Positions 18,002 to 49,749 of a DNA stretch of 64,000 nt are shown piece by piece. The stretch comes from Dehalococcoidia bacterium (GTDB lineage Bacteria; Chloroflexota; Dehalococcoidia; SpSt-223). Below the pieces are notes generated by a model that was not told where the DNA came from, did no database searches, and saw only the letters and a list, made by a program, of their open reading frames with translations. Numbering within the stretch: the stretch's first letter is position 1; every line of letters begins with the position of its first letter. Where the stretch lies: assembly GCA_025054935.1 (NCBI GenBank), contig JANWZD010000001.1, forward strand, positions 201,008 through 265,007, read 5' to 3'. A program made the translations under genes and the position numbers.

Positions 18002-18436
18002 TCAGGCCCATACCCAGGCGAGCGTAAAGCCGAGAAGCGCGCCGGCGACGACCTGGATGGGGGTGTGGCCGATGAGCTCGAAGAGCCGCTTCTCAGAGAA
18101 TCGATGCTCCACAAAGTACTCGTCGAGCATCCGGTTCAAAATGCCGGCCTGAATGCCCACAGCACGCCGGACGCCCGCGGCGTCATACATCACGATCGCC
18201 GCGAAGACGAGACTGAGCGCGAACAGCGGCGTATGCACGCCGTCCAGCTTGCCGATAACCGTGGCGAGGGACATGACGACTGCGGAATGAGCGCTCGGCA
18301 TGCCGCCGGGCCGGGTGAACGTCCGGGGGCTGAGGCGATGCTCGCGGATGAGGATCCAGAGCACCTTAATGCTTTGACTGAGTAGCCACGCGAAGAAAGG
18401 AATGGTCAGATATTTATTGGCAAGCAGCGCTTCCAT
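18002..18436 (-). CDS. Divergent PAP2 family membrane protein (YuiD-like, acid phosphatase/haloperoxidase-related)
   Basis: MEALLANKYLTIPFFAWLLSQSIKVLW...GGMPSAHSAVVMSLATVIG...MYDAAGVRRAVG matches the PF02681 'divergent PAP2' pattern (PSxHSA). Start ATG 18436. Confidence 0.75.
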   Translation of the reverse strand: MEALLANKYLTIPFFAWLLSQSIKVLWILIREHRLSPRTFTRPGGMPSAHSAVVMSLATVIGKLDGVHTPLFALSLVFAAIVMYDAAGVRRAVGIQAGILNRMLDEYFVEHRFSEKRLFELIGHTPIQVVAGALLGFTLAWVWA

Positions 18437-18512
18437 CGTGTCTACGCCGAGAGCGGCTGGCGGACGGGAGCTCGCCGGTCTGCGCGACCTGGCGCGCCTC
18501 TCGTCGATCGGC

Positions 18513-18728
18513 TCAGCGCGGCGGAAGGTCGGTCTCGTCTTGGAGTTGGACGAGGCGAAGCTCCGCCGTTTCGATAATGGTGGCACAGGTCTTGACGAGG
18601 CGCATCCCCTGTTCGTAAAGCCCCATCGCCTCTTCCAGCTCGAGCCCCCCTTCTTCGAGCCGTTGGACGATCGCCTGCAGCTGGGCAAAGGCAGCCTCGA
18701 AGGTTAGGGGGGCAACGTCATTCGTCAT
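18513..18728 (-). CDS. xseB: Exodeoxyribonuclease VII small subunit
   Basis: 71 aa; FEAAFAQLQAIVQRLEEGGLELEEAMGLYEQGMRLVKTC is the canonical XseB sequence. Overlaps the xseA stop by 11 nt. Confidence 0.85.
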   Translation of the reverse strand: MTNDVAPLTFEAAFAQLQAIVQRLEEGGLELEEAMGLYEQGMRLVKTCATIIETAELRLVQLQDETDLPPR

Positions 18729-32435: not shown

Positions 32436-33428
32436 TCACGGCGACGGATCGGCAGTCGGCGCCGCGAGCCCGAGACGGGTGAACCGCCACTGGCTGTAGA
32501 CAAAGAGCGCCCCGGCACCGACTGCGACGCCGAACCACAGTGTACACGCTCGAATCAGGATCGTGGCGGCGGCGGTAACGTCGCTCGGCGCCCCGACGAG
32601 CAGCCTGGTCAGGGCGGCGATCCCGCCTTCGGCGACCCCAAGCCCGCCCGGGGTGAGGAAGAGACCGCCTGCGAGCGATGAGACTGCGAGGATAAAACTT
32701 GCCTGGAGGAGGAGCATGCCGCTCGGCTCGAGGCCGAGGCCGGCGAGGACGAGAAAGAAGGCGACGCATTCGCCCGCCCAGGAGAGAACGCCAAGGGCGA
32801 TCCCGAACCCGAAGCTGGGACCGCGGAAGAGCACCGCGCTGCCCTCATAGAAATGCCGAAGGTGGTGCGCGCGGGTCCGGATGAGGGGGAGGCGCTCAGC
32901 AAGGGCAAGCACAGCCACAGCGAGCGGCGGATACTGGCTCAGGAGGAGCACCATCGCGGCCAAGAGGAGCGTGCCCACCATCACCTCAAACCCGAGCCCG
33001 AAAACAACGATCCCGGCGCTGGCGAGGATTAGAAGAGCAAGACCGTCAGTCAAGCGCTCCGCGATGATAATCGGCGCTGCCCGGCTGAACTGAATGCCGC
33101 TCTGCTGCTGGAGCAGGTAGCATTTCAGCCACTCGCCGACCTTTCCCGGGGTGATGGTCATGCTCAGGCCGCTGAAAAAGATAAGCAGGCTATCGAGCGG
33201 AGCGACCGTGCGCGCCCCGAGCAGCCGGATGTAGTAGTGCCATTTCCCGAAGCGGATGACATAGTTGGCCAGCGTTAGGCCGATGATGGCCGGCAGGAGC
33301 CCGACCTGGAAGCGACTGATTGCGGCGACAGTCTCAGACAGGTCGCCATAGACGAGGAGCGCAAGCAGCACGAGAACGCCAAAGGCGAGCGAGAGGAGAA
33401 TGCGCCCGCGGAAGCGTGCGAGGTTCAT
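32436..33428 (-). CDS. Lysylphosphatidylglycerol-synthase-TM-region-like (UPF0104, flippase-like) integral membrane protein
   Basis: Eight or more TM helices. Conserved N-terminal RFGKWHYYIRLLG-type motif of PF03706. Confidence 0.75.
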   Translation of the reverse strand: MNLARFRGRILLSLAFGVLVLLALLVYGDLSETVAAISRFQVGLLPAIIGLTLANYVIRFGKWHYYIRLLGARTVAPLDSLLIFFSGLSMTITPGKVGEWLKCYLLQQQSGIQFSRAAPIIIAERLTDGLALLILASAGIVVFGLGFEVMVGTLLLAAMVLLLSQYPPLAVAVLALAERLPLIRTRAHHLRHFYEGSAVLFRGPSFGFGIALGVLSWAGECVAFFLVLAGLGLEPSGMLLLQASFILAVSSLAGGLFLTPGGLGVAEGGIAALTRLLVGAPSDVTAAATILIRACTLWFGVAVGAGALFVYSQWRFTRLGLAAPTADPSP

Positions 33429-33438
33429 TCGGTTCGCG

Positions 33439-34560
33439 TCAGTATTGGTTGAACAGCGCGCCCCACGGGCCCTCTTTGATCTTCTGGATCCGTTTCAGCC
33501 CGTGGACGCGGTACCAATACCAATTGTGATAGATATTGGAGGCAAGATAGCTCCACGGCACCAGCGGAGAGCGAAGCAGCAGGTTTTCGAGCGGCTTCAA
33601 CGGACCGTGATAGATCAGCTTTTGTCCTCGGCTGGCAAACGTGTCTTGATTGCCGTGGAAATGCCAGTTGACGTTTGAGATGTCATCGCCGACGTACTCG
33701 ATCGCGCGCGTGTCGCCGACGCCGAGACCGCGCTCGTGCCCATTGCGAATGAACCCGATCGAGAGGGGGTCGAACCCCATCAGCCTCGCTGAGGTGGCGT
33801 CAATCGCCACCTGATCGCGGCTGGCGAGGATCACGTTCTTGACGTGGGGCACCATGCAGCGGGGTCCAGGGCCGTCCCCGGCGATGGTGCCATCCATGAC
33901 AGCGAAGACGCCGGGATGGATCTCGTACTGGATCGCGAGCAGATCGATGATCGCTTGATGGATCACCGAATGGGTCCAATGCCGCTGGAAATTAAGAAGC
34001 CCCCCGAAGGCATTTTTGACTGCCCCGGTGATCTGGGTGAAGACGTGGGTCTTCACGGTCGGGAGATGGATGATGTTTTTGCCGATCAAAAAGTCTGGGA
34101 TGTAGATGCCGTCGGGGTAGACATCGTTCAGCACTTCCATCTTGGCGCGCGGCTCGTAGCGGATCCACTTCACCGGCGGCTCTTCGAGGTGAACGGAAGG
34201 AACGCCGTGCCGGTCTGTCACCGCTTGATGCTTGTTCTTGATCGCTCCCTCGTGGGCGTCGACCACGACCGTGCTGTTATGCACGGCGACAAGGCGGTCA
34301 AACCCCTGCGCCTTCAGCGAGCGGATCGTGCCGTCCAGCTGCCACGGGGCGGTCGAGCAGCCGGGGTACCAATGCTGCCACGAAATGTTGACCTTCAGGA
34401 TCGTATCGACGCTGCGGTCGAGTTCCTGGTCGACGTCGGCAAGCCGGATGAGACGGTCATAGTCGTCGAGGACAGTCTCCGGTGACGTGAACAGGACCGC
34501 CACTTTCGGCTTGCCGGTATAGCGCGGCCCCGCGGGCCGGCTGGGCGATGTCTGGATCAT
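33439..34560 (-). CDS. DUF362 domain-containing protein
   Basis: Full-length match to DUF362-like proteins (AVMDGTIAGDGPGP...). First gene of a three-gene minus-strand operon, with 10 and 20 nt intergenic gaps. Confidence 0.8.
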   Translation of the reverse strand: MIQTSPSRPAGPRYTGKPKVAVLFTSPETVLDDYDRLIRLADVDQELDRSVDTILKVNISWQHWYPGCSTAPWQLDGTIRSLKAQGFDRLVAVHNSTVVVDAHEGAIKNKHQAVTDRHGVPSVHLEEPPVKWIRYEPRAKMEVLNDVYPDGIYIPDFLIGKNIIHLPTVKTHVFTQITGAVKNAFGGLLNFQRHWTHSVIHQAIIDLLAIQYEIHPGVFAVMDGTIAGDGPGPRCMVPHVKNVILASRDQVAIDATSARLMGFDPLSIGFIRNGHERGLGVGDTRAIEYVGDDISNVNWHFHGNQDTFASRGQKLIYHGPLKPLENLLLRSPLVPWSYLASNIYHNWYWYRVHGLKRIQKIKEGPWGALFNQY

Positions 34561-37734: not shown

Positions 37735-40700
37735 CTAGTTCTCAATCACGATGCGGACGACTTTTCTGCCTCCTGTATCGACGACATAGAACCTGCCGTC
37801 GTCCGCCGCGACAATCTCAACCGGCAGCGTGAACAGCCCGGGCGCGCCGCCAACCTGCTGGACCCCTTCACGAACGTCGTAGCGCACGAGGCGGCCTCGG
37901 TCCGGGTCGGTGACCACCGGTCGGGAAGCAGCGTCGAGCACGAGGTGAGGTCCGTTCAGCGGGACAGACCAGTTGATCGGCCATTCCGCTTGATAGCGGC
38001 CGCCGGGGTCGAACCATTGGAGACGCTTGTTGCCGGTGTCGAGAACGAGGAGGTCGCCGGTCGGAAGCAGGGCAGCGTCGGTCGGTTCCAGCATCTCGCC
38101 CGGACCGGCGCCCTTTCTCCCGCCGTAGATGGTCAGCAGCTGGCCGTCGGAAGCGAACTTGAGCACGCGGTTTTGCCCCGTGTCGGAGATATAGAGATTG
38201 TCCGCCTCATCGATCGATAACCCGCGCGGCTTGTAGAAGTCGGACCGCGCTAACGGCAGCCGCCCCACAAACCGGCCGTCATCAAGGCGGTATTCGTGGA
38301 TCCCGGCTGTTGTCGCATCAAGGATGAACACTCGCCCCGATCGGGTGATGGCGATCCCGGTCGGCTCTTGGAGGCCGCCTGCTGTCGGCTCTGGACCCGC
38401 ATACGCGCGGATAAACTGCCCCTGGGGATCGAAGACGAGCACTCGCCGCGCTCCTCCATCAAGCACGTGCAGAGCGCCGGTAGGGTCAAGAGCAGCAGCG
38501 CGCGGCTCCTCAAGCCGTCCCTCAGGGGAAAGTCCGTAGGTCATCTCGACTCGAAGCGAGAGCGGCGGGCCGCTTGCGAAGCGCACGACGCCGCTCGGGA
38601 CGCGGACGGCGGCCTCTCGGGGAGCCGCAGGCACGGTCGGGCTCGGGGGAAGATCGCTCCCTTGGGGAGGCAGCAGCACCGCTGACGGGATCAGCTCGCG
38701 TCGTCGCCCTGGCGGCGTCCAGTAGAGGTAGATGCGCGAATAGGGATCGCGGTCGACGAACTTCAGCTGGAGATCGTGCAGCCCTGCCTCGAGCGGCACA
38801 TCTACCTCGTGGAGTTCGCTGCCGCGACGATTGTCGATAATCAGCCGGCCATTGAGAAAGAGTTGGGAAGTGCTGATCTGCTCTGTCCCAAAGCGGTAGA
38901 CACCTGGCTGGTCGATCCGGAGCGTGCCGCGCCACTCCACGCTGTAGGGGCGAGGAAGGGGCAGAATGTGGAAGTACATGCCGATCTGCGGATCGATCCG
39001 GAGAAGGGCGGGCTCTCCTGCCCACTCGGCGTTGGGATAATACGCGCCGAGCAGCCCTGTCGCCGCAACGGGAGGGAGATAGAAGAGGTTGGAGGGGATC
39101 GGGCTGAGCGTGCCGCCCGGCGGCTCCCAGGCCAATCGGACTGGTTGGCCTGGGCGGTCGGCACGAGCTCGGAGCAGGAGAGCGTGGTTGCCGGCTGCGA
39201 GGGTCAGCCGCGCTGCCTGGCCTCCGGTGAGCACGCGCGCGCCGTTGAGGAACAGCTCGGCACTGCTCGGTCCTTCAAGGAGCAGCCGGTAGCTGCCGTG
39301 CCGGGGAACGTGGAGCGTGCTCCGCCACTCCGCAAGCACCGGAACCGCGAGGCCGAGCGTGGCCGGGTCGATGTTGATCTCGGTCTCGCGGCGGCTGAGA
39401 TCGGGCCGCTCGCGTTCAGTTCCGTGCGCGAAGTAGCGCGCCTCAACGCCTTGGATGGCGACGATATCGGCCGGCGCGAGCTGAACAGCGTAGACGAGCG
39501 GAGGTCCGCCGAAGGGCGGACGCAGCTCCTCGACTTGGGCGCTGGGATAATAGAGCCGAAGCTGGCTGAACGCCGCCTGCTCGCTCGGGTCGAGGAAGAA
39601 GAAGGTCCGCGGAGCAACGGCGCGCACCGGTACGTCTGTTGCGGCGTTGAACAGGGCGCCTTCGGGCGCCTTCGGGGCGAGGAACCGGATTGTAGGCGGT
39701 CGGCCGGAGAAGAACTGGCTGAGGTAGACTGCATCGTTCGGAGAGAGCTCGCGAAGCCGCAGGGCAACGAGCGTTTCGGCCGCGGAATGGGCCGCAAAGG
39801 CGGCGAAGTCGTTTGCCCAGGCGACGAAGTAGCGATGATGGTTGACGACGGCGACGAAGAGGAGGGCGCTGCCGAGAGCGATGGTGCCCCCCGCTCGCCA
39901 AGCTCGCGACCATGCCGACGGGCCATGCCACCGCGCGGGGAGACGCGGAAACGTTCCAACCAGCAGCGCTCCGAGCGAGAGCGGGGTGCGGCTGCTGCGC
40001 GCGGCGGCCGCCGGGTTGCCGTACGTCCCCCAGGGGCTGCGCACCCAGCGGTCCCAGAGCGCGCCGAGCGGCAGCGCCGCAAAGATGAGCGTCGGCGGCA
40101 GCGCGGTCGATGCGCGCAGCGACTGCGGAGCTTCAAAGTTGAGGGAGAGGATCCCTCCAAGCAGCATCGTTCCCCACCAGATGATGAGGGTCGGCCCAGT
40201 CGGGCGGCGAAGCAGTCCCAACGTCAGCCCCACGCCGAGAACGAAGAGCGGCGCCAGAAGCGGGTCGAGCATCGGCCGGCCGGGAAGGTTATGGCGGCCA
40301 TTGCGGTCCCCCGCCACGTTAAACATCAGCAGGTGCTTCTCGATGTTGTCGAGCAGCGGGCCCCAGTGACCGGCTCGCTCCACTTCGGGCATCACGCTTG
40401 CGACCCCAAGCCTACGGTTGAACTCCTCGGGGAAGCGGACTGCAAACCATGCCAACGGCCCGGCCGCAATCAGCGCCGCGAGGGCGAGGAGGAGTGCGCC
40501 TTGGCTGATCGATGGCCAGAGCGATCGCCGCCAGAGCGCAGCCGCGAGGAGCAGAACGGCGAGGGTTACCGGGAAGATCCGTGACGGGAAGTAGAACTGG
40601 AGGTCGAACCCGACAAGAAGGCCGGCGATAACGAAGTCGCGCGGCCGGCGGTCTTGCAGTCCCCGCACGAGGAAAAACAGGACGAGCGTCTCGAGGGTAA

Positions 40701-41550
40701 TGCTGAAGATTGCGGTGCTGGTCGGAAAGCGGCTTAGGGTGACGTGCCAGCTGGAAACGGCGAGAAACCACGCCGCAATGAGCGCGATCCGCGGCGAGCC
40801 GAAGAGCCGGCGGGTGAGGAGGTAGATCGCGGGGATCCCCACGGTTCCCGCAATCGCTGTGGTCACCCGCAAGGCAAGAGGAGTCTCTCCGAAGACGAGC
40901 ATCGCGAGGGCGGCAAGGTAGATATTCGCCGCCGGGTTTTGGTTTTCGACGTAAAAAATCGGCCGGTATGTCGGCGAGGCGAGGATCTGCTGGGCGCCAA
41001 GGCCGACGACCGCCTCGTCGTACCACACTCCGAAGGGGAGCGTCGCTAGTTCTGCGGTACGGAACCAGAGCCCGACTGCGGTCGCGAGGGCGAGGATGGC
41101 CAGTTCAGCTCGGCCGATTGGCGGGCTGACCGGTGTCCGCGTGCCGGCCGGCAGCAGGAAGGCTGCGCCGAGTGTCATCGCAACAGCGGCGAGGTAGAGG
41201 AGCCAGGCGAGGTTTGGATTGCGGTCGCTTGAAAACAGCCAGAGGGAGCCTCCAAGGAAGAGGAAGGCAGCCGCGCCGGCAAAAGCTGACGGAAGCGCGG
41301 CCGTCAGCCGCGGCCAACGGCCTGTGCTCTCCCAGCCGTCAGGACCGGTGGCGGGCAGCGCGTACTGCGCCAGCGCGATTGCAATAAGGAACGCCGCCCC
41401 AGCAGCGATGAGGTCCGGCGGCTGGCTCAGGTAGCGAGCATTGGCGGCGACGGCGAGGACAATGGCGACGATCCCAGCGAGGAGGCGGCGCGGCTGCGAC
41501 GGGAAGAGGAGCCGGGTCGCCGAGCGGGAGGAGGGCGCCGCTGGTGCCAT
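37735..41550 (-). CDS. Large GT-C/GT39-like polytopic membrane glycosyltransferase homologue fused to tandem PA14 domains and a C-terminal NHL-repeat beta-propeller (1271 aa)
   Basis: N-terminal about 550 aa with more than 10 TM helices and a PMT/ArnT-like loop (GVWYDEAVVG). Middle: two PA14 signatures (GLLGAYYPNAEWAGEP...YRFGTEQISTSQLFLNGRLIID...LYW and an earlier degenerate copy). C-terminus: NHL repeats (YISDTGQNRVLKF, LVLDTGNKRLQWF, FYVVDTGGRKVVRI). Confidence 0.8.
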   Translation of the reverse strand: MAPAAPSSRSATRLLFPSQPRRLLAGIVAIVLAVAANARYLSQPPDLIAAGAAFLIAIALAQYALPATGPDGWESTGRWPRLTAALPSAFAGAAAFLFLGGSLWLFSSDRNPNLAWLLYLAAVAMTLGAAFLLPAGTRTPVSPPIGRAELAILALATAVGLWFRTAELATLPFGVWYDEAVVGLGAQQILASPTYRPIFYVENQNPAANIYLAALAMLVFGETPLALRVTTAIAGTVGIPAIYLLTRRLFGSPRIALIAAWFLAVSSWHVTLSRFPTSTAIFSITLETLVLFFLVRGLQDRRPRDFVIAGLLVGFDLQFYFPSRIFPVTLAVLLLAAALWRRSLWPSISQGALLLALAALIAAGPLAWFAVRFPEEFNRRLGVASVMPEVERAGHWGPLLDNIEKHLLMFNVAGDRNGRHNLPGRPMLDPLLAPLFVLGVGLTLGLLRRPTGPTLIIWWGTMLLGGILSLNFEAPQSLRASTALPPTLIFAALPLGALWDRWVRSPWGTYGNPAAAARSSRTPLSLGALLVGTFPRLPARWHGPSAWSRAWRAGGTIALGSALLFVAVVNHHRYFVAWANDFAAFAAHSAAETLVALRLRELSPNDAVYLSQFFSGRPPTIRFLAPKAPEGALFNAATDVPVRAVAPRTFFFLDPSEQAAFSQLRLYYPSAQVEELRPPFGGPPLVYAVQLAPADIVAIQGVEARYFAHGTERERPDLSRRETEINIDPATLGLAVPVLAEWRSTLHVPRHGSYRLLLEGPSSAELFLNGARVLTGGQAARLTLAAGNHALLLRARADRPGQPVRLAWEPPGGTLSPIPSNLFYLPPVAATGLLGAYYPNAEWAGEPALLRIDPQIGMYFHILPLPRPYSVEWRGTLRIDQPGVYRFGTEQISTSQLFLNGRLIIDNRRGSELHEVDVPLEAGLHDLQLKFVDRDPYSRIYLYWTPPGRRRELIPSAVLLPPQGSDLPPSPTVPAAPREAAVRVPSGVVRFASGPPLSLRVEMTYGLSPEGRLEEPRAAALDPTGALHVLDGGARRVLVFDPQGQFIRAYAGPEPTAGGLQEPTGIAITRSGRVFILDATTAGIHEYRLDDGRFVGRLPLARSDFYKPRGLSIDEADNLYISDTGQNRVLKFASDGQLLTIYGGRKGAGPGEMLEPTDAALLPTGDLLVLDTGNKRLQWFDPGGRYQAEWPINWSVPLNGPHLVLDAASRPVVTDPDRGRLVRYDVREGVQQVGGAPGLFTLPVEIVAADDGRFYVVDTGGRKVVRIVIEN

Positions 41551-41555
41551 CGCGG

Positions 41556-44500
41556 TTAGGGAAGCGGGTCAAATCGTTGGACGCGAGCGTTATTGCTGTC
41601 AACGACAAAGAGCGCGCCGTCCGGCCCGACGGCGACGCCAATGGGGAGATTGAAGCTCCCGGGCTCGGCGCCGAAGCGGCCCACGACATTGAGAAGCTGC
41701 CCTTCCGGCGAGAACCGGAGCAGCCGGTGGTTCTCGGGGTCGGAGACGATGACATTGCCGCTCGGGTCGACCGCGAGATACGGCTTGTTCAGAATGCCGG
41801 TGCTCTCCCAGCCGCGGATCGGGGTCGCCCCCAGGGGGCGCAGGCTCGCGTCGAACCGCTGGATCCGTCGGTTCCAAGTGTCGGCGACGAAGATCGTGCC
41901 ATCGGGAGCAACGGCAATCCCGACCGGTTCTTGGAACTGCCCGAGCATGGCGCCGGCGCCGCCGAAGGCGCCGAGAAACTGCCCGTCCGGCCGGAAGCGC
42001 TGTATCCGCTTGTTGCCGGTGTCGGTGACGAGCAGCGACCCGTCATCGAGGAAGGCGATCGCGCGCGGCCCGTAGAACCGGCCGGGATTTCCCGTCACCT
42101 GCCCGACCGACTCGCCGAACTCGCCAAACTTCCGCAGAAAGCGGAGATCGGCGGTGAACTGCTGGAGGCGATGGTTCCAGGTATCAGCGACCCAAACGGT
42201 GCCGTCAGGCGCGATGGCGATCCCCCACGGCTCGGTGAATTCACCATCAAGCGTTCCCCGGCGGCCGACCTGAGCGACCACGCGGCCGGAGGGATCGAAC
42301 TTCTGCACCCGATGGTTACCCGTATCGACGACGTAGATGAAGCCGTCTCCATCGACGGCGATGCCGCGGGGCTCGAGCAGTTGTCCTGCGCCGCTGCCGC
42401 GAGCGCCGAAGGCTGCGCTCGGCTGAAGAGGGGTAAGCGCGAGAGCGTATTCATCCGGTTGCGCCGGCCGCGCCGGGCCGGCGGTCAGCGGCTCGCCGGC
42501 GAGAAGGGAGCTCTTGACGAAGAAATAGCCGTCTTCCGAGCCGAGCGGCTTGCCCAGGTCGCGGTTGAAAAAGTACTGCCACAGCCGTTCTAGCCCGGTG
42601 GGACTGAGCGACGCCGCGACGGCATCGCTGAACCCAAACGCGCTGTTCGGGCGTCCCGGCTGAGCGGCCAAGGGGGAGCCCATCGCGGCCACCCACTCGA
42701 TAGCGCTCTTGTAATCCTCGGGGAACCACCAGCGATGACGGTAGCGCTGCCCGGGGGTGTAGTCGCTCAAATACGGGCGCATCCGCTCCACATTGTTGGC
42801 GTGGATAAGCACCACCTGCCCGGCGGGCGGAGCAGCAGCACCGCTGTAGGAGGGGTAGTCGACGTTCGGGTAGTGGCGGAGATACCACGCCCAGGGCCAA
42901 GTAAAGCCGCTGGTGCTGTCGACGGAAATGCGCAGCTCTTTTCCGCCTGTAGCCCGGAGAGAGAGCCGTTCGATTTCGCGGTACAGCCGAGGGATATCCG
43001 GGGAGGTTTGGGTGTAGATCAGCATCTCGGTGGCGATATCGCCGTGTTTGTAGGTGACAGTCCACGCAGCGCGCATCGTGAGGACGAGCAGGATCAGGAC
43101 GATCGCGCCGCTTGCGGCGCGGACGATCCCCGAGCCCCCGAACGGTGCCCCAACCTGAACAGCGGCCCCGACAAGGAGCAGCGCGATCCCGATCAGGGCG
43201 AGCGCTTGGCCGTTCCATCCCGGTGCGAGGTCGGCGGCGGCTTGAATCAGGCCGGCGGCCCCTGCCGCAAGAACGACCGCTGCCGCGATGAAGAGCGCAA
43301 CCACCGCGGCGGCCCGCCACGCCACGTCCGAGTTCCACCGCACCCCCTCAAGCCACCAGCCTGCTGAGCGACCCGCAAGCACGATCAGCGGCAGCGCGAC
43401 GTGGACAAGCAGCCACGGCATCTTCTCGCCTGCCCAGCTGTACGCAACGAGCGAGCCGACAAACCAGTAGAAGAGAAACGCAACGAATGGTGTCAGCCTC
43501 TCCCGGTGGCGAACGAGGGAGGCAATCCCTGCGCCGGCAAGGGCAAGCGGAAGGAATTCATAGAGCGGCAGCAGCAGGAGGTAGTAGTACCACGGCTGGT
43601 TGCCGCGCTGCACCCCATGCTGGTCGAGCCAGTAGGCGAGACTGCCCCAGACCCCAGACCCGATCCCCGGCAGATTGGTAAAGAAGGTGCTGTACAGGAG
43701 CACGAACACTGTCCAGAAGAGCGCCGCATATCCCGGCCAGACGGTTCGGTTCCACCACAAGCCGACGGCGGTCGAGATGACAAAACAGATGCCAGCGATC
43801 ACGAACTGCGAGAAGATCGCCCGCGTGGTCACCCAGGGCCCAAAAGCGATGACAGTCGGGTCTGTCGAGACGAGGGGTGTCAGCTTCGCAAAAGCGGCGA
43901 GCAGGGGCAGAGTGAGCGTGCCGAGCAGGATCAGGACGCCGAAGATCCTGTTGTCCCGCACCTCCTCCAAGCGAGGAAGGCGCCCTTTCCCAGCGAGATC
44001 CCACAGCCAATAGGCGGTGAAAAAGCTGCCGAACACCGCAACGGTAATGTAGTGGGTCTCCTTTGCCGAAAAGCCGAGCGCCATCATCAGCGTCCCGAGA
44101 TAGAGCCAGCGAACTTCCTTGCGCTCGATGTACCGCCAGGCCGCGAGTGCCAAGAGGAGGGTGAAGACCGCCATCAGGATGTCGTTGCGGGAAAAGCGGC
44201 TGTAGTACAGCATCGTCGGCGAGAAGGCGAGCAGCACCGCCGTGACGAGCGCGCCGCCGCGGCCGAGGAGGTCGCGCATGAAGAAGGGGAGGAGAACGAG
44301 GACGGTCCCAAAGGTCGCGTAGAGGAGGCGAGCCGTGACGTCGTTGTCGCCAAACAGAAAGTAGATCAGGGCGTTTACGTGAAACTGAAAGGGGCCGTGC
44401 ATCATCGGGTCGTGCTGGTAGCCCCGCCCGGCGTAGAGATACCAGCTATAGAGCACGTGCAAGCTCTCATCGTGATGCATCGCGCGCGTTCCGAGATCCC

Positions 44501-44660
44501 AGAACCGCATGATGGCTGCGACAAGGGTCAGCCCAGCGTAGGCCAGCGTCTCCCAAGTGACGCTGACGACGCTGAACACCCGGTCAACAGCGTCGCCGCG
44601 AGCGGAGAGCGAGCGGAGAGGGAGAAGAGCTCGAGTCATGCGCCTGCTCCTCGCTGGCAC
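41556..44660 (-). CDS. GT-C fold membrane protein (DE motif HHDESLH; TIGR03663-like by my recollection) with a C-terminal six-bladed NHL-repeat beta-propeller (1034 aa)
   Basis: N-terminal roughly 650 aa hydrophobic, with an extracytoplasmic first-loop DE motif typical of GT39/GT83. C-terminal NHL repeats (YVVDTGNHRVQKF, WVADTWNHRLQQF, LVTDTGNKRIQRF, FVADTWNRRIQRF, IVSDPENHRLLRF, FVVDSNNARVQRF). 5 nt gap to the downstream gene. Confidence 0.8.
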   Translation of the reverse strand: MPARSRRMTRALLPLRSLSARGDAVDRVFSVVSVTWETLAYAGLTLVAAIMRFWDLGTRAMHHDESLHVLYSWYLYAGRGYQHDPMMHGPFQFHVNALIYFLFGDNDVTARLLYATFGTVLVLLPFFMRDLLGRGGALVTAVLLAFSPTMLYYSRFSRNDILMAVFTLLLALAAWRYIERKEVRWLYLGTLMMALGFSAKETHYITVAVFGSFFTAYWLWDLAGKGRLPRLEEVRDNRIFGVLILLGTLTLPLLAAFAKLTPLVSTDPTVIAFGPWVTTRAIFSQFVIAGICFVISTAVGLWWNRTVWPGYAALFWTVFVLLYSTFFTNLPGIGSGVWGSLAYWLDQHGVQRGNQPWYYYLLLLPLYEFLPLALAGAGIASLVRHRERLTPFVAFLFYWFVGSLVAYSWAGEKMPWLLVHVALPLIVLAGRSAGWWLEGVRWNSDVAWRAAAVVALFIAAAVVLAAGAAGLIQAAADLAPGWNGQALALIGIALLLVGAAVQVGAPFGGSGIVRAASGAIVLILLVLTMRAAWTVTYKHGDIATEMLIYTQTSPDIPRLYREIERLSLRATGGKELRISVDSTSGFTWPWAWYLRHYPNVDYPSYSGAAAPPAGQVVLIHANNVERMRPYLSDYTPGQRYRHRWWFPEDYKSAIEWVAAMGSPLAAQPGRPNSAFGFSDAVAASLSPTGLERLWQYFFNRDLGKPLGSEDGYFFVKSSLLAGEPLTAGPARPAQPDEYALALTPLQPSAAFGARGSGAGQLLEPRGIAVDGDGFIYVVDTGNHRVQKFDPSGRVVAQVGRRGTLDGEFTEPWGIAIAPDGTVWVADTWNHRLQQFTADLRFLRKFGEFGESVGQVTGNPGRFYGPRAIAFLDDGSLLVTDTGNKRIQRFRPDGQFLGAFGGAGAMLGQFQEPVGIAVAPDGTIFVADTWNRRIQRFDASLRPLGATPIRGWESTGILNKPYLAVDPSGNVIVSDPENHRLLRFSPEGQLLNVVGRFGAEPGSFNLPIGVAVGPDGALFVVDSNNARVQRFDPLP

Positions 44661-44696: not shown

Positions 44697-46493
44697 TCAT
44701 CTCAGTATGACCAGAAGAGCTTCGCGGCGAAATCCCGTTTCGCCGGCCGTGCGCCAGACATACCAGCGCCAGAAGGAACGCGCCCCTTCTGGCGGACCGT
44801 AACTTCCAAGAGCGTAGACGCTGCGTATCCCGCTTGCTGCCGTCTCCGGGAGAGACGTGCCGACCGGCACAATCGCTGCATCGAGCCCTCCCGCGAGGTC
44901 AGCGCGCATGCGCATGCCCGGCTGATCGCGGAGGAGCCAGGCAAACGGAACCCGCAGCTCCGGGGCGACACCGTAGGCGATGATGCCTCCCCGCGCGGCG
45001 CGCAGTTCCGCAATCTGCTCGGGAAAGATCTGCGCGGCGGGGCCGGGAACGTCTGGCAGCACCCACTCCCCGGCGCTCGGTCGGGCGTTCAGCGCGAACG
45101 AGGCGTGGATCGACCCCATCAGCAGGAGCGCCGCTCCGGCAAGTGCCGTCACCGGCAGGGCGTTCCGGCCGAGGGAAGCAACGACGAGCACGCTGTAGCC
45201 GCCGGCGAGGGCAAGACTGAGAAAAACGGCCAGCCACTGCAGCGGCGTTCCCCCATCGCTGCGTGTCAGCACCGCCGATTGGATATAGGCGTAGACCAAG
45301 AGGGGGATTGCGCCGAGCAGCGCTGCTCCTCGCGCGAGGTCGTCGCGTCGCAGCGCGCAAAGTACATCCGCAAGCGCGGTGGCGGCGAGGAGGGCAAGGG
45401 GGAACGCGATCGCGGCGAGCGGTCCGACGAGGCGCTGTCCGCCGAGCACCGCGACGGCAAGCGCGACACCGCTCCAAAGAGCGAGAAAAGCGAGCGCCTG
45501 CCGGCTCCGCGGCTCGCGCGCTCTCCCGCTCAGCAGCCACAGGATGCCCGCAGTCCCCGCGCCGAGCGTGAGCGGGTCGTAGCTCACCAACGCCAGGGGC
45601 GGCAGGAGCGCGCTGCCGCCGGTCGTAAATTCGCGGACCCAGCCGTTGACCGCGGGCAGCGCGAGCCCGCTCGGGTCGAGGAAGAACCGGGTCGAGACGA
45701 GAAGGAACAACAGGAGCGCCGCAAGCACTGCACCGCCGAGCGAGGGGGTCTGCCCCCTCTCAGTGCGCCACCGCGTCAGGAGCGCCGTGAGCGGCGTCGA
45801 CGTCCCGAGCAGCCGGGCGATGACGAGAGCGACGGCAGCCGCGAGGAGGAGGGTGACCGCGCGAGGACCGCTCGTCAGCAGCATGGCGAAGGCGAGAATG
45901 GCCGTCGCGGCCCAGCCGGCCTGGCCATCCCGCTCGAAGCGCAGGAGACCAAGCAGCGCCACCACCGCCGCCAGAAGAGCGAGCGCGTCCGGTTCCCCGC
46001 GGCGCGAGATGGCGAGCGAGAAGGGACTGACGGCGAGCAAAAACGCGGCCAGAAGGGCGGCAAGCCGCCCGAGGAACGGTCGGAACGCGGGCATCAGGGC
46101 GACTGTCGCCGTTCCAGCGACGACCGACGGAAAGCGGGCAGCGAGATCTGAGGGAGTGGCAAGGAAGAAAACCAGCGCAGTGAGCAGGTCGGCGAGCGGC
46201 GCGCTGCTCCCCGCGGGGCGGCCGAGAGTGAGGTCAAGCGCTGCAAGCGCGGTCGCGCTTTCACCGAGCGAGAGCGGGTCGCTCGCGGCGAGCCCAAGCC
46301 GCAGTCCGGCAGCGACGACAATCGCCACGCCGTAGAGGAGCCATTCGAGCGGGACCGCAACCGCGGGGCGGTTGAGCATCGCCTCGAGAGCGGGAGGCGC
46401 GCTGCCGCTCGCGCTGCGGACGGAGGGCGACAGCTCTGCCACCGCGCTAGCGGGCTCGGAAAATCGTTGCGCTGCCATTCTGAAATGCCACAT
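44697..46493 (-). CDS. GT39-like polytopic membrane protein (putative glycosyltransferase), start uncertain
   Basis: Multiple TM helices and a D..E-containing first loop. ORF-track frame begins at TTG 46559, overlapping the YYY gene by 113 nt. ATG 46493 or 46478 avoids the overlap. Confidence 0.6.
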   Translation of the reverse strand: MWHFRMAAQRFSEPASAVAELSPSVRSASGSAPPALEAMLNRPAVAVPLEWLLYGVAIVVAAGLRLGLAASDPLSLGESATALAALDLTLGRPAGSSAPLADLLTALVFFLATPSDLAARFPSVVAGTATVALMPAFRPFLGRLAALLAAFLLAVSPFSLAISRRGEPDALALLAAVVALLGLLRFERDGQAGWAATAILAFAMLLTSGPRAVTLLLAAAVALVIARLLGTSTPLTALLTRWRTERGQTPSLGGAVLAALLLFLLVSTRFFLDPSGLALPAVNGWVREFTTGGSALLPPLALVSYDPLTLGAGTAGILWLLSGRAREPRSRQALAFLALWSGVALAVAVLGGQRLVGPLAAIAFPLALLAATALADVLCALRRDDLARGAALLGAIPLLVYAYIQSAVLTRSDGGTPLQWLAVFLSLALAGGYSVLVVASLGRNALPVTALAGAALLLMGSIHASFALNARPSAGEWVLPDVPGPAAQIFPEQIAELRAARGGIIAYGVAPELRVPFAWLLRDQPGMRMRADLAGGLDAAIVPVGTSLPETAASGIRSVYALGSYGPPEGARSFWRWYVWRTAGETGFRREALLVILR

Positions 46494-48786
46494 CAAGGTG
46501 CGACGCCAGCCGCTCTCCGACGCCTGCGCCGTATTTCTGCCTTTCGAGGCTGCCGACAAAGACGTACTCTGCGTTGTACTTCTTCAGGAGAGCAAGCAGT
46601 TCGTCGCGGCTTGCAGCAGTGTAGATGCGGTCGATCTCGGCATCGCGGCCGCGGAACGGCGCGTCGGACCCGCGCCACTGACGCTGATGGCCTGCCCAGC
46701 CGAGGATCGTCGGAATTCCGGTGCGCGCCGAGACCCGCCCAAACTCGGAGTACTGCCCCCCTGTCGCCTCAACGACGACGGCGCCTCGGCTCGCCTGAGC
46801 GGCCAGCCAGTCGATCGCTTCCGCTTCCCCGGGGGCAGCGGCGCGGGCGAACGCCAAGCCGTCGAGCGTCGGCTGCCCGGTGAAGCCGTCAGCCCTGCTC
46901 CACGTTGCAGCAAGCGTGTAATACATTCCCCCTGCAATCAGGATAAGACATGCCGCGACGATCACCCCGCGCTTCCACTGGCGCAGCGTTTGCGGCCAGA
47001 GCGAGACAAGAGCGTAGCCCCCTGCGACGGCGAGGAGGGTCCACGCTTGGAAATACAGCTTGAAGACCGTGTTCATTCGGTTCCCAAAAACGTCCAGAAT
47101 GAAAAAGTGTTCGGCCGCAAGATGCAAGAGGAAGGCGGTGCCGAGGAGCAGCGCTGCGAAGGCATCAGGGCGCGAGGGGGTCCGAAAGGCAACTAGGAGC
47201 GCAAGGGTGACGATGGCGGCAAGAGGAAGCGAGATCGCCGCCTTCGCCGGCAGAGAGTCGATCACGAGCGGCGCTGTCCCAGTGCGCACGGCGGCGGGCA
47301 GCGTCACCAGCAGCCAAGCAGCTGGGAGAGCGGCCCCGATGAGGAGCGCCGGCTGAAGCGCGCGGCGCCAGCCGGCATCGAGCTGCCCCAGCTGCCAGCC
47401 GACGAAGGCGATGGCCGGGAGAGCCAGGGGGCCCCAGAAGAGCGCCCAATGGTGCGGCTGGGTCGCGACTTGGACGACAGGGCGAATGCCCGACGCCTGT
47501 GACGAGAACGAAAGGTAGAACGGAAGGTAGAGAACGAGACTTGCTCCTCCAAGCGCGAGGGCAAACAGGCCGACATCGCGGATCAGCCGGCGGTCGAGAT
47601 GGCCAGCTTTGCGGTACGCGCTCAGGGCGACTGCCGCGACGACGAGCCCGCCGTAGGTCGGCAGGTCCCACGAGTTGAGAAAGCCGAGCGCGCCGACGCA
47701 GATCGGTAGTGCCGCTGCCTGCCAGGGGTGAGCGCGCGCCCACCGCATTCCCCAAGGATACGGAGAGTGAAAGGCAGCAGCAGCGATGCCGACAACGAGG
47801 AGGTTAAACGGCAGGGCCAGCACGTGCGGATGCAGATCGCCGAGCACGAAGCTGAAGATCGGGAACTCGTTGATGGTGTAGTCGATTCCTTGGCCGTCAC
47901 GGAACGTGTTGATGACCCGGGTCGCCTTCCACCACCACCAGTGTTCTGTTGGGGTCCAACTGGCGGCACGGTAGGGATGCGTCAGCCCGTCGATGGCAAG
48001 CGCGCTCCAGAATTCCGCGGTGCCCCAGCCCCGCGACCGCGCGAAATCGAGCAGGCCGACCAAGTTGCCCATCCCGACCAGCAGCACCGTGCCAAGCAGG
48101 CCGGCGAGCATGGTCTGCCGCGGCGTGGCCGCAGGCCAGCGCGCAATGACGAGCGACGAGACGAGCCCGAAAGCGGCGTGAGCGGAGAGCGCCATGACGA
48201 GCGCCAAGGCGAGATTGAACGCGACCGAGGCCGGGGTTGCGGCGAGGTGGGCGAGCATCCCAACGAGGACATAGCCGAAGTAGTAGTACGAGACGGTGTA
48301 GCCGGCAAGCCAGGGGTCAGGGGGAGGGAAGGCGTCGGCGCGCAGCACCGCATTGAGGAACAGCAGCTCCATCGGCTTCTCGGTGCCGGCAATCTCGGGA
48401 GCGTAGGCGCGGACACTTGCCCACCCGATGAAGATCACCGCAAAAAGCGCCTCGCCCGCCAGCAGCCGTTGCCAGTTGTCGCGCATCCAGGCAAGCTGCA
48501 GCGCTGCCTGCACGCGTCCGCCGAGCGCTGCCAGCCCGCCGAGAGCGAGGAGAGCCACGCCGAGCACCGCAGCCCCGCGGTTTGGCGGAAACAGAGAAAG
48601 CGAAGCGCCAATCCAGAAGAAGAAGCCCGTGAAAATGATGCCGAGCGGCCGCGCGAGGCTGAGGCCGCGGTCGGCAAGCTCCGGAAAGAGGCGCAGTGCC
48701 AAGGGCGCCGCCGCAAGCCCAATCAGGGTGGAGAGCAGCCACCAGCCGAGAACTGGCAGCGCGACTGCCTCGATCAGCGCGGACAT
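46447..48786 (-). CDS. DUF2298 / 'Chlor_Arch_YYY' family polytopic membrane protein
   Basis: The YTVSYYYFGY motif and the overall about 780 aa multi-TM layout match what I recall as the TIGR03662-type family, which is restricted to Chloroflexi and Archaea. C-terminal soluble domain (EATGGQYSEFGRVSARTGIPTILGW). 3 nt gap after ftsY. Confidence 0.8.
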   Translation of the reverse strand: MSALIEAVALPVLGWWLLSTLIGLAAAPLALRLFPELADRGLSLARPLGIIFTGFFFWIGASLSLFPPNRGAAVLGVALLALGGLAALGGRVQAALQLAWMRDNWQRLLAGEALFAVIFIGWASVRAYAPEIAGTEKPMELLFLNAVLRADAFPPPDPWLAGYTVSYYYFGYVLVGMLAHLAATPASVAFNLALALVMALSAHAAFGLVSSLVIARWPAATPRQTMLAGLLGTVLLVGMGNLVGLLDFARSRGWGTAEFWSALAIDGLTHPYRAASWTPTEHWWWWKATRVINTFRDGQGIDYTINEFPIFSFVLGDLHPHVLALPFNLLVVGIAAAAFHSPYPWGMRWARAHPWQAAALPICVGALGFLNSWDLPTYGGLVVAAVALSAYRKAGHLDRRLIRDVGLFALALGGASLVLYLPFYLSFSSQASGIRPVVQVATQPHHWALFWGPLALPAIAFVGWQLGQLDAGWRRALQPALLIGAALPAAWLLVTLPAAVRTGTAPLVIDSLPAKAAISLPLAAIVTLALLVAFRTPSRPDAFAALLLGTAFLLHLAAEHFFILDVFGNRMNTVFKLYFQAWTLLAVAGGYALVSLWPQTLRQWKRGVIVAACLILIAGGMYYTLAATWSRADGFTGQPTLDGLAFARAAAPGEAEAIDWLAAQASRGAVVVEATGGQYSEFGRVSARTGIPTILGWAGHQRQWRGSDAPFRGRDAEIDRIYTAASRDELLALLKKYNAEYVFVGSLERQKYGAGVGERLASHLDVAFQNGSATIFRAR

Positions 48787-48789
48787 GGG

Positions 48790-49749
48790 CTACTCGAACA
48801 ATTGCCGCACGTACTCGGCTGGGTCGAAGTCGACAAGATCGTCGAGCTGTTCCCCAGTCCCCAGATAGCGGATCGGCAGGCCCAGCTCATTGGCGATGGT
48901 GAAAGCGATCCCGCCCTTGGCAGTGCCATCGAGCTTTGTCAGCACGATCCCGTCGATATCGGCGGCTTGGGCGAACGCTTCCGTCTGCAGGATACCGTTC
49001 TGGCCGGTGGTGGCATCGATGACGAGCAGCACCTGATGGGGCGCGGTCGGGTCGACCTTAGCGATGACGCGCCGGATTTTCCGCAGTTCCTCCATCAAGT
49101 TCGTCTTCGCGTGCAGCCGGCCAGCGGTATCGATGATGACCACATCTGCTCCCCGGCTGCGTCCCGCTTCAACGGCGTCGTAGGCAACAGCGCCGGGGTC
49201 GGCGCCGGGCTGATGGGCCACAACTTGGACGCCGATCCGGTCCGCCCACACCTTCAGCTGCTCGATGGCGGCGGCACGGAAGGTATCTGCGGCGCCGATC
49301 AGTACCCGCTTCCCCTGCCGGTGCCAGCGGTGCGCAAGTTTGGCGATAGTCGTCGTTTTGCCAGTTCCATTGACGCCGACGATAAGGAGTACGAAGGGTC
49401 GGCCGTCGGGAAATCGCCGCGGTTCCCGCTCAAAGGGGCGGTCGTCCTCCTCCTCCACCTCGCGCAGCACGGCGCTCATCTCTTCTTGCAGCGCCTGCTT
49501 GGCGCGGTGCGCATCCGTAATCCCCTCCTCGCGGACACGCTCGCGGAGCCGGCTGAGGAGCTCTTCCGTCGTGCTCAGGCTGAGATCGGCGCTAATCAGC
49601 GTCTCTTCCAGCGCTTCCCAGAAAGCATCATCGATCTGACGGCGCTCAAAGACCGCCGCAACGCGCTGGAAGACCGCGTCTCGGGTTCGACGGAGGCCAA
49701 AGTCGATCTTGCGAAGGCGCTCGAACATCGCTCTCTCGAATGCTAGCAC
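48790..49749 (-). CDS. ftsY: Signal recognition particle receptor FtsY (short form)
   Basis: SRP54-type GTPase motifs: GVNGTGKTTT, DTAGR, TKLDG. GTG 49749 or ATG 49728 start. Confidence 0.9.
   Translation of the reverse strand: MLAFERAMFERLRKIDFGLRRTRDAVFQRVAAVFERRQIDDAFWEALEETLISADLSLSTTEELLSRLRERVREEGITDAHRAKQALQEEMSAVLREVEEEDDRPFEREPRRFPDGRPFVLLIVGVNGTGKTTTIAKLAHRWHRQGKRVLIGAADTFRAAAIEQLKVWADRIGVQVVAHQPGADPGAVAYDAVEAGRSRGADVVIIDTAGRLHAKTNLMEELRKIRRVIAKVDPTAPHQVLLVIDATTGQNGILQTEAFAQAADIDGIVLTKLDGTAKGGIAFTIANELGLPIRYLGTGEQLDDLVDFDPAEYVRQLFE

Follow-up and report, generated by a model that had tools for sequence, protein, structure and literature searches.

A TIGR03663-family GT-C membrane protein fused to a six-bladed NHL propeller, a candidate outward-facing glycosyltransferase in a conserved Chloroflexota gene cluster

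The stretch of DNA analyzed here, referred to as the window, comprises 64,000 nucleotides (nt) from a Dehalococcoidia bacterium (GenBank assembly GCA_025054935.1, contig JANWZD010000001.1, positions 201,008 to 265,007), with a G+C content of ~65% throughout. On its minus strand, at 41556..44639, lies a gene whose product of 1027 aa (plus stop) joins a glycosyltransferase-C (GT-C) membrane domain of the TIGR03663 family to a C-terminal NHL propeller; this gene is the target of our analysis. A preliminary description of the same DNA had given its span as 41556-44660, and the minus-strand open reading frame (ORF) does reach that far, position 44660 being an upstream in-frame GTG. The true start is probably the ATG at 44639 instead, because the sequence GAGGAG is located 7 nt 5' of it and because it gives the 1027-aa product annotated by NCBI. 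Residues are therefore counted from this ATG, while translation from the GTG would yield 1034 aa. A 100% identical protein is already present in NCBI (P0001, 'MAG: TIGR03663 family protein [Chloroflexota bacterium]'), where it derives from assembly GCA_033578755.1, contig JAVQXA010000003.1, a metagenome-assembled genome (MAG) of Chloroflexota. The stop codon of the target, TAA, occupies 41556-41558 and is followed by five nucleotides (ccgcg) and the ATG of the next gene at 41550. Scanning for promoters and terminators gave an outcome no different from that of shuffled sequence.

To place the protein among known families, it was compared with profile models. Against NCBIfam TIGR03663, whose current NCBI name is 'flippase activity-associated protein Agl23', it scores 295.5 bits (cutoff 126.25); the match runs from residue 43 to 597 of the GTG-start translation (1034 aa) and takes in positions 6-430 of the 435 in the model. 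The Pfam model PMT_2 is matched at residues 81-201 from the ATG (88-208 from the GTG) with 48.8 bits against a cutoff of 26.1 (E 1.2e-12), and PF01436 recognizes six NHL stretches (175 bits, E 3.9e-53). The preliminary description had assigned the protein to the GT-C enzymes, which these matches bear out, and had linked it more narrowly to GT39 and GT83, for which the models gave no backing: the target has no match to the GT39 model PF02366 (PMT) even at E <= 10, none to the NCBIfam Pmt equivalog NF058602 (GT39), and none to the GT83 ArnT equivalog NF009784/PRK13279 at E <= 0.01, and there is no MIR domain among its Pfam matches. Some homologues, as well as a haloarchaeal relative, do reach PF02366. 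Because the target itself reaches neither the GT39 nor the GT83 ArnT models, it is on this profile evidence a member of a separate GT-C family within the PMT_2 superfamily, belonging to neither GT39 nor GT83. The TIGR03663 family is characterized by an invariant DE dipeptide, an HGP tripeptide, and two arginines near the N terminus, and residues answering to these features are present in the target as D57-E58, H81-G82(-P83), and R104/R148/R151.

An AlphaFold2 model of the full-length protein, built with 65 homologues, has a predicted local distance difference test score (pLDDT) of 88.4 and a predicted template modelling (TM) score (pTM) of 0.74, while a model of residues 1-720 reaches a pLDDT of 90.1 and a pTM of 0.90. 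As Foldseek searches with the full-length model returned NHL propellers only, the model of residues 1-720 was made for the membrane part and compared with the PDB. This revealed that the best 23 matches are all GT-C enzymes, with a Foldseek probability of 1.00 for STT3, ArnT, Pmt4, ALG9, PglB, Pmt1/2, and EmbB. The leading matches are STT3 (8b6l_I, E 1.5e-7), ArnT (5f15, E 7e-7, target-normalized TM-score 0.53), and Pmt4 (9i5k, E 4e-5, target-normalized TM-score 0.54), followed in rank by ALG9, PglB, and Pmt1/2, with EmbB and AftD lower (E 0.02-0.2, probability 0.96-1.00). No transporter or flippase fold stood above noise among the PDB matches of this membrane model. The modelled membrane domain thus has the GT-C (GT-C_A) fold with its conserved helical core.

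Three parts can be delineated in the protein. The polytopic GT-C membrane domain (residues 29-531; 43047..44555, minus strand, as are all features of the target) is predicted to have 15 transmembrane (TM) helices, with its N terminus inside and its C terminus outside. It is followed after the last TM helix by an alpha/beta soluble domain, predicted to be extracytoplasmic (residues 540-715; 42495..43022), and by a beta-propeller formed from the C-terminal 283 residues (745-1027; 41559..42407). The six NHL blades read from the letters by the preliminary description are all found again: the AlphaFold model folds residues 745-1027 into six four-stranded blades, which superpose on the NHL propellers of TRIM71, Thin, and TRIM2 with target-normalized TM-scores of 0.89-0.92. 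The propeller also matches the sensor domain of PknD (1rwi), an NHL domain that is extracellular according to its PDB title.

Conservation was assessed in two alignments, one of 65 fused homologues (40-81% identity) and one of 80 sequences that includes unfused relatives (37-75% identity). The motif HHDESLH, which the preliminary description had located in the first loop, is found there at residues 55-61 (44457-44477), where the first helix of extracytoplasmic loop 1 begins, 9-15 residues past TM1; back-translated, the motif is matched at one place in the window and in none of 100 shuffles. Further along the same loop lies HGP (residues 81-83; 44391-44399), with both H81 and G82 invariant. YYSRFSRND (residues 145-153; 44181-44207), with invariant R148, R151, and D153, sits on a short loop that the topology prediction places on the outer side. 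Three further invariant motifs of the membrane domain are predicted to face outward: KE (K193/E194; 44058-44063), QPWYYY (43581-43598), and GEKMPW (43413-43430). Among the 65 fused sequences the invariant residues include H56, D57, E58, S59, H61, P78, H81, G82, R104, R148, and R151, and in addition Q348, P349, Y352, Y353, and E405-K406-M407-P408-W409. When unfused relatives from 79 genomes were added to give the 80 sequences, H55-H61, H81, G82, R104, R148, R151, D153, and E194 were invariant. D57 and E58 are a putative catalytic pair, and the loop bearing R148, R151, and D153 offers candidate contacts for a donor phosphate. The DE pair had been read initially as the signature of GT39 and GT83 alike. 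It is a signature of GT39, whereas GT83/ArnT enzymes use Asp residues rather than a DE pair. The alpha/beta soluble domain has two invariant aromatic, tryptophan-rich motifs of its own, FTWPWAWYLR (42876-42905), whose residues W581, P582, W583, W585, Y586, and R588 are invariant in the 80 sequences, and RWWFPEDY (42711-42734). Both bring to mind the aromatic stretches that bind acceptor or sugar in the periplasmic domains of other GT-C enzymes (WWDYG of STT3, for example), although neither can be aligned with these.

The orientation of the protein was judged from loop charges, with loops defined from the model helices and counted over the 80 sequences. The density of K+R is 0.19 in the predicted inside loops versus 0.05 in the alternate, outside loops, and the loop that carries DE and HGP has on average 1.7 K+R versus 6.8 D+E, in agreement with the extracytoplasmic position that had been proposed for the DE motif. 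Nearly all invariant residues map to the predicted outer side. Just ahead of the last hydrophobic segment lies a loop with the consensus ARRxGxR and almost no acidic residues, on which basis the C-terminal domains were placed outside. Given this charge bias and the usual architecture of GT-C enzymes, the protein probably has 15 TM helices, with its N terminus inside and both the alpha/beta domain and the NHL propeller outside.

The fused architecture is widespread in Chloroflexota, and public databases hold the exact protein of the window under an automatic family name. A search with the full-length sequence gave 2117 homologues, the best 120 of which are all 940-1170 aa long, combine PMT_2 with NHL, and come from MAGs of Chloroflexota, including Dehalococcoidia and Anaerolineae. 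Searching exhaustively with just the membrane domain gave 1098 cluster representatives at E <= 1e-30, and the best 150 of these include 55 of at least 940 aa and 86 of 600-940 aa; relatives are encoded in 395 species-representative genomes. We fetched 83 related loci, of which 18 have the NHL fusion and 65 do not. When the membrane domain was used to build a neighbour-joining tree, the fused sequences grouped in a clade of their own (17/17). As fused forms are both widespread and confined to a single clade of this tree, the fusion arose, on the sequence record, once and long ago; it marks out a subfamily and is no peculiarity of the source genome, and the NHL-fused clade sits within a larger unfused family. 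One record among the best 80 genome loci, a 6-kb contig (L044, JAIVWR010000082.1), is labelled Acidobacteriota and is the sole one from outside Chloroflexota; its membrane domain is 92% similar to that of a Dehalococcoidia locus (L059) and it has the same order of DUF2298, P3, and fused gene, so that it is likely a mis-binned short contig. We found nothing in the searchable literature on TIGR03663, DUF2298, or GT-C-NHL fusions.

The target lies within a series of co-directional minus-strand genes encoding FtsY, a DUF2298/TIGR03662 protein, a protein here termed P3, the target, and a PA14-bearing GT-C protein, separated by gaps of 3, 4, 57, and 5 nt. The first gene (48790..49749) encodes FtsY, the signal recognition particle receptor. 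The second (46447..48786) encodes a polytopic membrane protein of 779 aa of the DUF2298/TIGR03662 'Chlor_Arch_YYY' type, the canonical partner of TIGR03663, which in the window stands two genes upstream of the target and is found upstream in 61 of the 83 related loci. The third, P3 (44697..46442; 581 aa in the NCBI model), is a degenerate GT-C protein that matches PMT_2 and, weakly, TIGR03663 (61 bits). The gene downstream of the target (37735..41550; 1271 aa) encodes a PMT_2 GT-C protein with a W[YF]DEA motif in loop 1, followed by PA14 and NHL domains. This neighbour had been called a PA14-containing paralogue 5 nt away; the gap and the PA14 domain are as described, while 'paralogue' applies only loosely, the NHL domains of the two proteins being 32% identical and their membrane domains barely alignable (E 0.05). 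The suggestion that the two work together gains support from conserved synteny, as 12 of 18 fused loci have a PA14 GT-C gene on their downstream side, versus 0 of 65 unfused ones. Upstream of the fused gene, DUF2298 and P3 are each present in 17 of 18 loci, the exception having little upstream sequence. P3 is upstream in 0 of 65 unfused loci, and DUF2298 directly precedes the unfused gene in 44 of 65. The order DUF2298, P3, target-like gene, PA14-NHL gene, and PA14 gene recurs in an Anaerolineae MAG.

In P3 the sequence SLGESAT aligns to HHDESLH with loss of the Asp, and HGP is lost as well. Across 15 P3 orthologues (for example L001 8258-9991, L002 8265-9998, L004 6111-7892) the Glu of the DE pair is kept while the Asp position holds G, S, Y, T, A, Q, E, or D, and HGP is missing from the orthologues too, suggesting that P3 may be a non-catalytic pseudo-enzyme partner. 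PA14-type orthologues keep W[YF]DEA. By the signatures kept and lost, the operon therefore consists of two intact GT-C proteins, one degenerate GT-C protein, and the DUF2298 protein. The example of P3, which shows that GT-C domains of this operon can lose their catalytic residues, might be extended to the target itself, making it a non-catalytic scaffold or sensor in which a GT-C-derived anchor displays an NHL ligand-binding domain and organizes neighbouring enzymes, much as NHL propellers act as extracellular sensors in PknD (1rwi). We regard this as very improbable: unlike P3, the target keeps every family-invariant residue, D57/E58 and HGP included, over a range of 37-80% identity, which is hard to explain for a mere anchor.

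A local expansion of the module was observed in one locus (L003 12568-23059, on the same contig as L025), where three tandem PA14-bearing GT-C paralogues follow the NHL-fused gene, one of them with HGDEG instead of W[YF]DEA. In a second locus (L089 314-4987, from the Anaerolineae MAG GCA_046760185.1) a 1557-aa fusion of PMT_2 and DUF2298 lies just upstream of the same module, a Rosetta-stone arrangement that would link GT-C and DUF2298 proteins functionally. Invariant positions in 31 DUF2298/YYY orthologues comprise D39-R40, TEKPMD, FPPxDPWL, SYYYFGY, and WWWWRATR, and further EFPFFSF-GDLHPH, RMNTVFK, and GW-GHE-QWRG; by these invariant polar residues DUF2298 looks like an enzyme of uncertain type. 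A profile of DUF2298 gave chance matches only against the PDB. The idea that DUF2298 is itself a GT-C protein was tried and dropped, since profile-profile comparison with TIGR03663 shows no relationship (probability 5%).

The gene ftsY is adjacent to and co-directional with the DUF2298-TIGR03663 module, upstream of it, in 42 of 83 loci and divergent in seven more. This linkage, kept across Dehalococcoidia, is absent from the two Anaerolineae loci examined, for which reason it may be an inherited, lineage-specific gene order; it may otherwise hint at translocon-coupled glycosylation. The latter would suit a GT39-like protein O-mannosyltransferase (PMT) that mannosylates Ser/Thr residues of S-layer or other secreted proteins during their exit from the Sec translocon, which would explain why ftsY heads the operon. 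A loop-1 DE motif as in GT39, the match to PMT_2, the fold matches to Pmt4 and Pmt1/2 at probability 1.00, and the homologues and haloarchaeal relative that reach PF02366 are all consistent with such an enzyme. We nevertheless consider it improbable, given that the target itself reaches neither PF02366 nor NF058602 and lacks a MIR domain, that its fold is at least as near to STT3 and ArnT, and that the ftsY linkage does not extend to those two Anaerolineae loci.

A gene for a separate flippase-like membrane protein bears on the function of the target more directly. A protein of TIGR00374, named 'flippase-like domain-containing protein' by NCBI, and of PF03706, the MprF flippase-domain family, is encoded immediately downstream and co-directionally in 48 of 83 loci (examples are L020 10290-11423, L041 10194-11339, and L001 15883-16893), and directly downstream in 39 of the 44 unfused loci that also have DUF2298. 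In the window its gene (32436..33494, minus strand) lies 4.2 kb from the cluster, with genes for BipA, a GFO/IDH/MocA oxidoreductase, and a DUF362 protein between them. From its adjacency in the related loci it follows that the module carries its own candidate flippase. A gene of the DUF212 (divergent PAP2 phosphatase) family lies at 18002-18703 on the minus strand, 19 kb from the cluster and with no link to the operon; PAP2 enzymes can recycle polyprenyl pyrophosphate.

The family name raises the possibility that the target is instead an Agl23-type flippase or scramblase, which would move polyprenyl-phosphate sugars or larger lipid-linked glycans without transferring them, with the NHL propeller as an accessory docking domain. 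The target's TIGR03663 score is as strong as that of a haloarchaeal Agl23-annotated protein, WP_013440783.1 from a Halogeometricum borinquense plasmid (318.9 bits), and experiments on Agl23 of Haloarcula hispanica favour the same view: the protein suppresses yeast rft1-delta and, when purified, raises the access of mannosidase to Man5GlcNAc2-PP-lipid in proteoliposomes (PMC11182771). A passage of that paper, citing Lu et al. 2020, describes it as a putative hexose-P-dolichol flippase (PMC11182771). In our view, the loss of a transferase that consumes Dol-P-hexose would fit the accumulation of Dol-P-hexose in a mutant equally well. Many reconstituted polytopic proteins, moreover, scramble lipids.

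WP_013440783.1 also passes Pfam PMT and is 32% identical to the target over residues 11-195 (E 8e-23), where DE, HGP, YYSRFxRxD, and TKE are kept; these shared motifs and the PMT match therefore indicate that the archaeal proteins have the same transferase-like N-terminal module. Haloarchaeal Agl23 proteins resemble the target in being polytopic, in scoring well above the TIGR03663 cutoff, in this N-terminal GT-C module, and in having a C-terminal soluble domain. They differ in length (~570-650 aa), in carrying Agl23_C and no NHL, and in mostly standing alone in the genome, whereas the target is similar to them only over its first ~185 residues, has another C-terminal domain plus NHL, and belongs to a multi-gene GT-C operon. 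In precomputed Pfam lists, Agl23_C (PF26681) is given for 120 of 120 haloarchaeal matches versus 0 of the 120 best Chloroflexota matches, P0001 among them. Because the similarity is N-terminal only, Agl23_C is not listed for the Chloroflexota proteins, the anatomy points towards a transferase, and a separate flippase-like partner exists, the transfer of the 'flippase' label to the target is weakly founded. Every significant structural match of the membrane domain is to a transferase, and the invariant residues are concentrated in predicted outward loops that include a DE pair typical of PMT catalysis. Weighing both sides, we judge a flippase function unlikely, if a more serious contender than either of the alternatives treated above.

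On the plasmid pHBOR02 of H. borinquense (L084 8980-11351, NC_014731.1), the stop of the Agl23-annotated gene overlaps the start of a gene of the GtrA family, a family of putative small lipid-sugar flippases, and genes for two GH18 chitinases and two PKD-domain proteins lie nearby. The GtrA adjacency was considered as a haloarchaeal rule and rejected, being absent in three other haloarchaeal genomes, and is treated here as an anecdote.

The reading that we favour, and hold with moderate confidence, is that the target works on the outer face of the membrane as a glycosyltransferase dependent on polyprenyl-phosphate sugars, with a propeller that holds the acceptor. A polyprenyl-phosphate sugar would be bound at the outer leaflet of the cytoplasmic membrane, in an active site formed by H55-H56-D57-E58-S59-x-H61 of loop 1 together with H81-G82-P83, to which R104, R148, R151, D153, K193/E194, QPWYYY, and GEKMPW may contribute as further outward invariant elements. 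R104, R148, and R151 would hold the donor phosphate, and D57/E58 would activate the acceptor or position the donor, as in PMTs. The sugar would then pass to a glycoprotein or glycan of the envelope as acceptor, held or selected outside the membrane by the alpha/beta domain and the NHL propeller in a role comparable to that of the MIR domains of PMTs, the TPRs of TMTC proteins, or the carbohydrate-binding modules of Emb and AftD proteins. Within a presumably co-transcribed set of DUF2298, P3, the target, and the PA14-bearing GT-C protein, degenerate P3 may, on the pattern of heterodimeric GT-C enzymes, be a partner without catalytic activity and the PA14 enzyme may carry out a neighbouring step, while the separate TIGR00374 protein would be the more likely supplier of flipped donor.

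Several results weigh against this assignment. H. hispanica Agl23, the only studied member of TIGR03663, is reported as a flippase, and no protein of TIGR03663 is known to transfer a sugar. In the PDB, neither the membrane-domain sequence by itself nor either of two profiles (A2 and A3) picked up a relative, and TM-scores to solved GT-C enzymes are only 0.4-0.54, values that, as far as the model can be relied upon, signify a shared fold and no close kinship to any one CAZy family. No GT2 polyprenyl-phosphate sugar synthase and no GtrA protein is encoded by the 34 further ORFs of the window that were scanned. Lastly, both AlphaFold models render residues 477-531 (43047-43211) with high confidence as one continuous helix of 55 residues, which, if taken literally, would make the C-terminal domains cytoplasmic. 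A two-helix hairpin is predicted over these residues by their hydrophobicity and by the conserved ARRxGxR loop, contrary to the single modelled helix; with the hairpin, the NHL propeller would come to lie on the other side of the membrane. We give the charge pattern more weight than the helix, together with the prolines found in this loop in many homologues. The equivalent loop of the archaeal homologue, which is clearly longer and contains proline, was also weighed against a continuous helix, and the extracellular NHL domain of PknD, together with the PA14 domain that precedes the NHL domain of the downstream sister protein, was counted toward an outside location of the propeller.

Which proteins flip dolichol- and undecaprenol-phosphate sugars across membranes is an old problem in glycobiology. 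We tentatively extend the glycosyltransferase reading to a wider scheme, one that we consider possible though short of probable, in which TIGR03663/Agl23 proteins are outward transferases that consume polyprenyl-phosphate sugars, the co-encoded MprF-type TIGR00374 proteins of Chloroflexota flip these sugars, and DUF2298 is a further, unrecognized catalytic component, the whole forming an undescribed envelope-glycosylation machine. If so, the fused clade would have enlarged the machine by a pseudo-enzyme and by transferases that bear NHL and PA14 domains, genome annotation would now be spreading 'flippase' as a misnomer, and the flippases of polyprenyl-phosphate monosaccharides, long sought, might be found among the PF03706 proteins. 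The flippase claim for Agl23 merits a re-test in light of the complete GT-C anatomy, the conserved residues predicted to face outward, and the flippase-like partner gene in bacteria. Subsurface and ocean habitats harbour Dehalococcoidia and related bacteria in abundance, yet almost nothing is known about how these organisms construct their cell envelope. The four very large membrane proteins of this operon, encoded in a conserved and closely spaced set of genes, are what one would expect of a machine that decorates or assembles it.

Known systems share some of these features and differ in others. The GT39 enzymes (Pmt1-Pmt2, Pmt4, and bacterial Pmt) have the GT-C_A fold, the DE pair in loop 1, and an extra extracytoplasmic domain thought to engage the acceptor, although theirs is a beta-trefoil MIR domain in loop 5 of a protein with 11 TM helices, whereas the target has a C-terminal NHL propeller and ~15 predicted TM helices and does not reach the PMT models. 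ArnT (GT83) and STT3/PglB/AglB (GT66), which supply the best structural matches, are likewise N-in and C-out with a periplasmic or luminal C-terminal domain; no sequence relationship to them is detectable, the target lacks the STT3 motifs WWDYG and DK/MI, and the acceptors of these enzymes, lipid A and Asn sequons, are without support for it. Three-component Gtr-type systems, in which a GT2 synthase and a small flippase act with a GT-C enzyme, similarly set a GT-C protein beside a dedicated flippase candidate, as 48 of the 83 related loci do, but the candidate here is MprF-domain-like rather than GtrA, no GT2 is found in the cluster or the ORFs scanned, and DUF2298 is an additional component. 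The propeller itself resembles the sensor of PknD and eukaryotic TRIM-NHL proteins, being six-bladed, with target-normalized TM-scores of 0.78-0.92 and 23-39% identity, yet those propellers are joined to kinases or E3 ligases and bind RNA or unknown ligands, while that of the target is borne on a GT-C domain. The mycobacterial EmbA/EmbB/EmbC and AftD enzymes match the structure more weakly, carry modules of the carbohydrate-binding type in place of NHL or PA14, and belong to another phylum and presumably to another polymer; like the target, they are GT-C proteins with large extracytoplasmic C-terminal domains, carbohydrate-binding in their case, and the Emb arabinosyltransferases, tandem paralogues encoded in one operon that builds an envelope polymer, can be likened to the target cluster as a whole.

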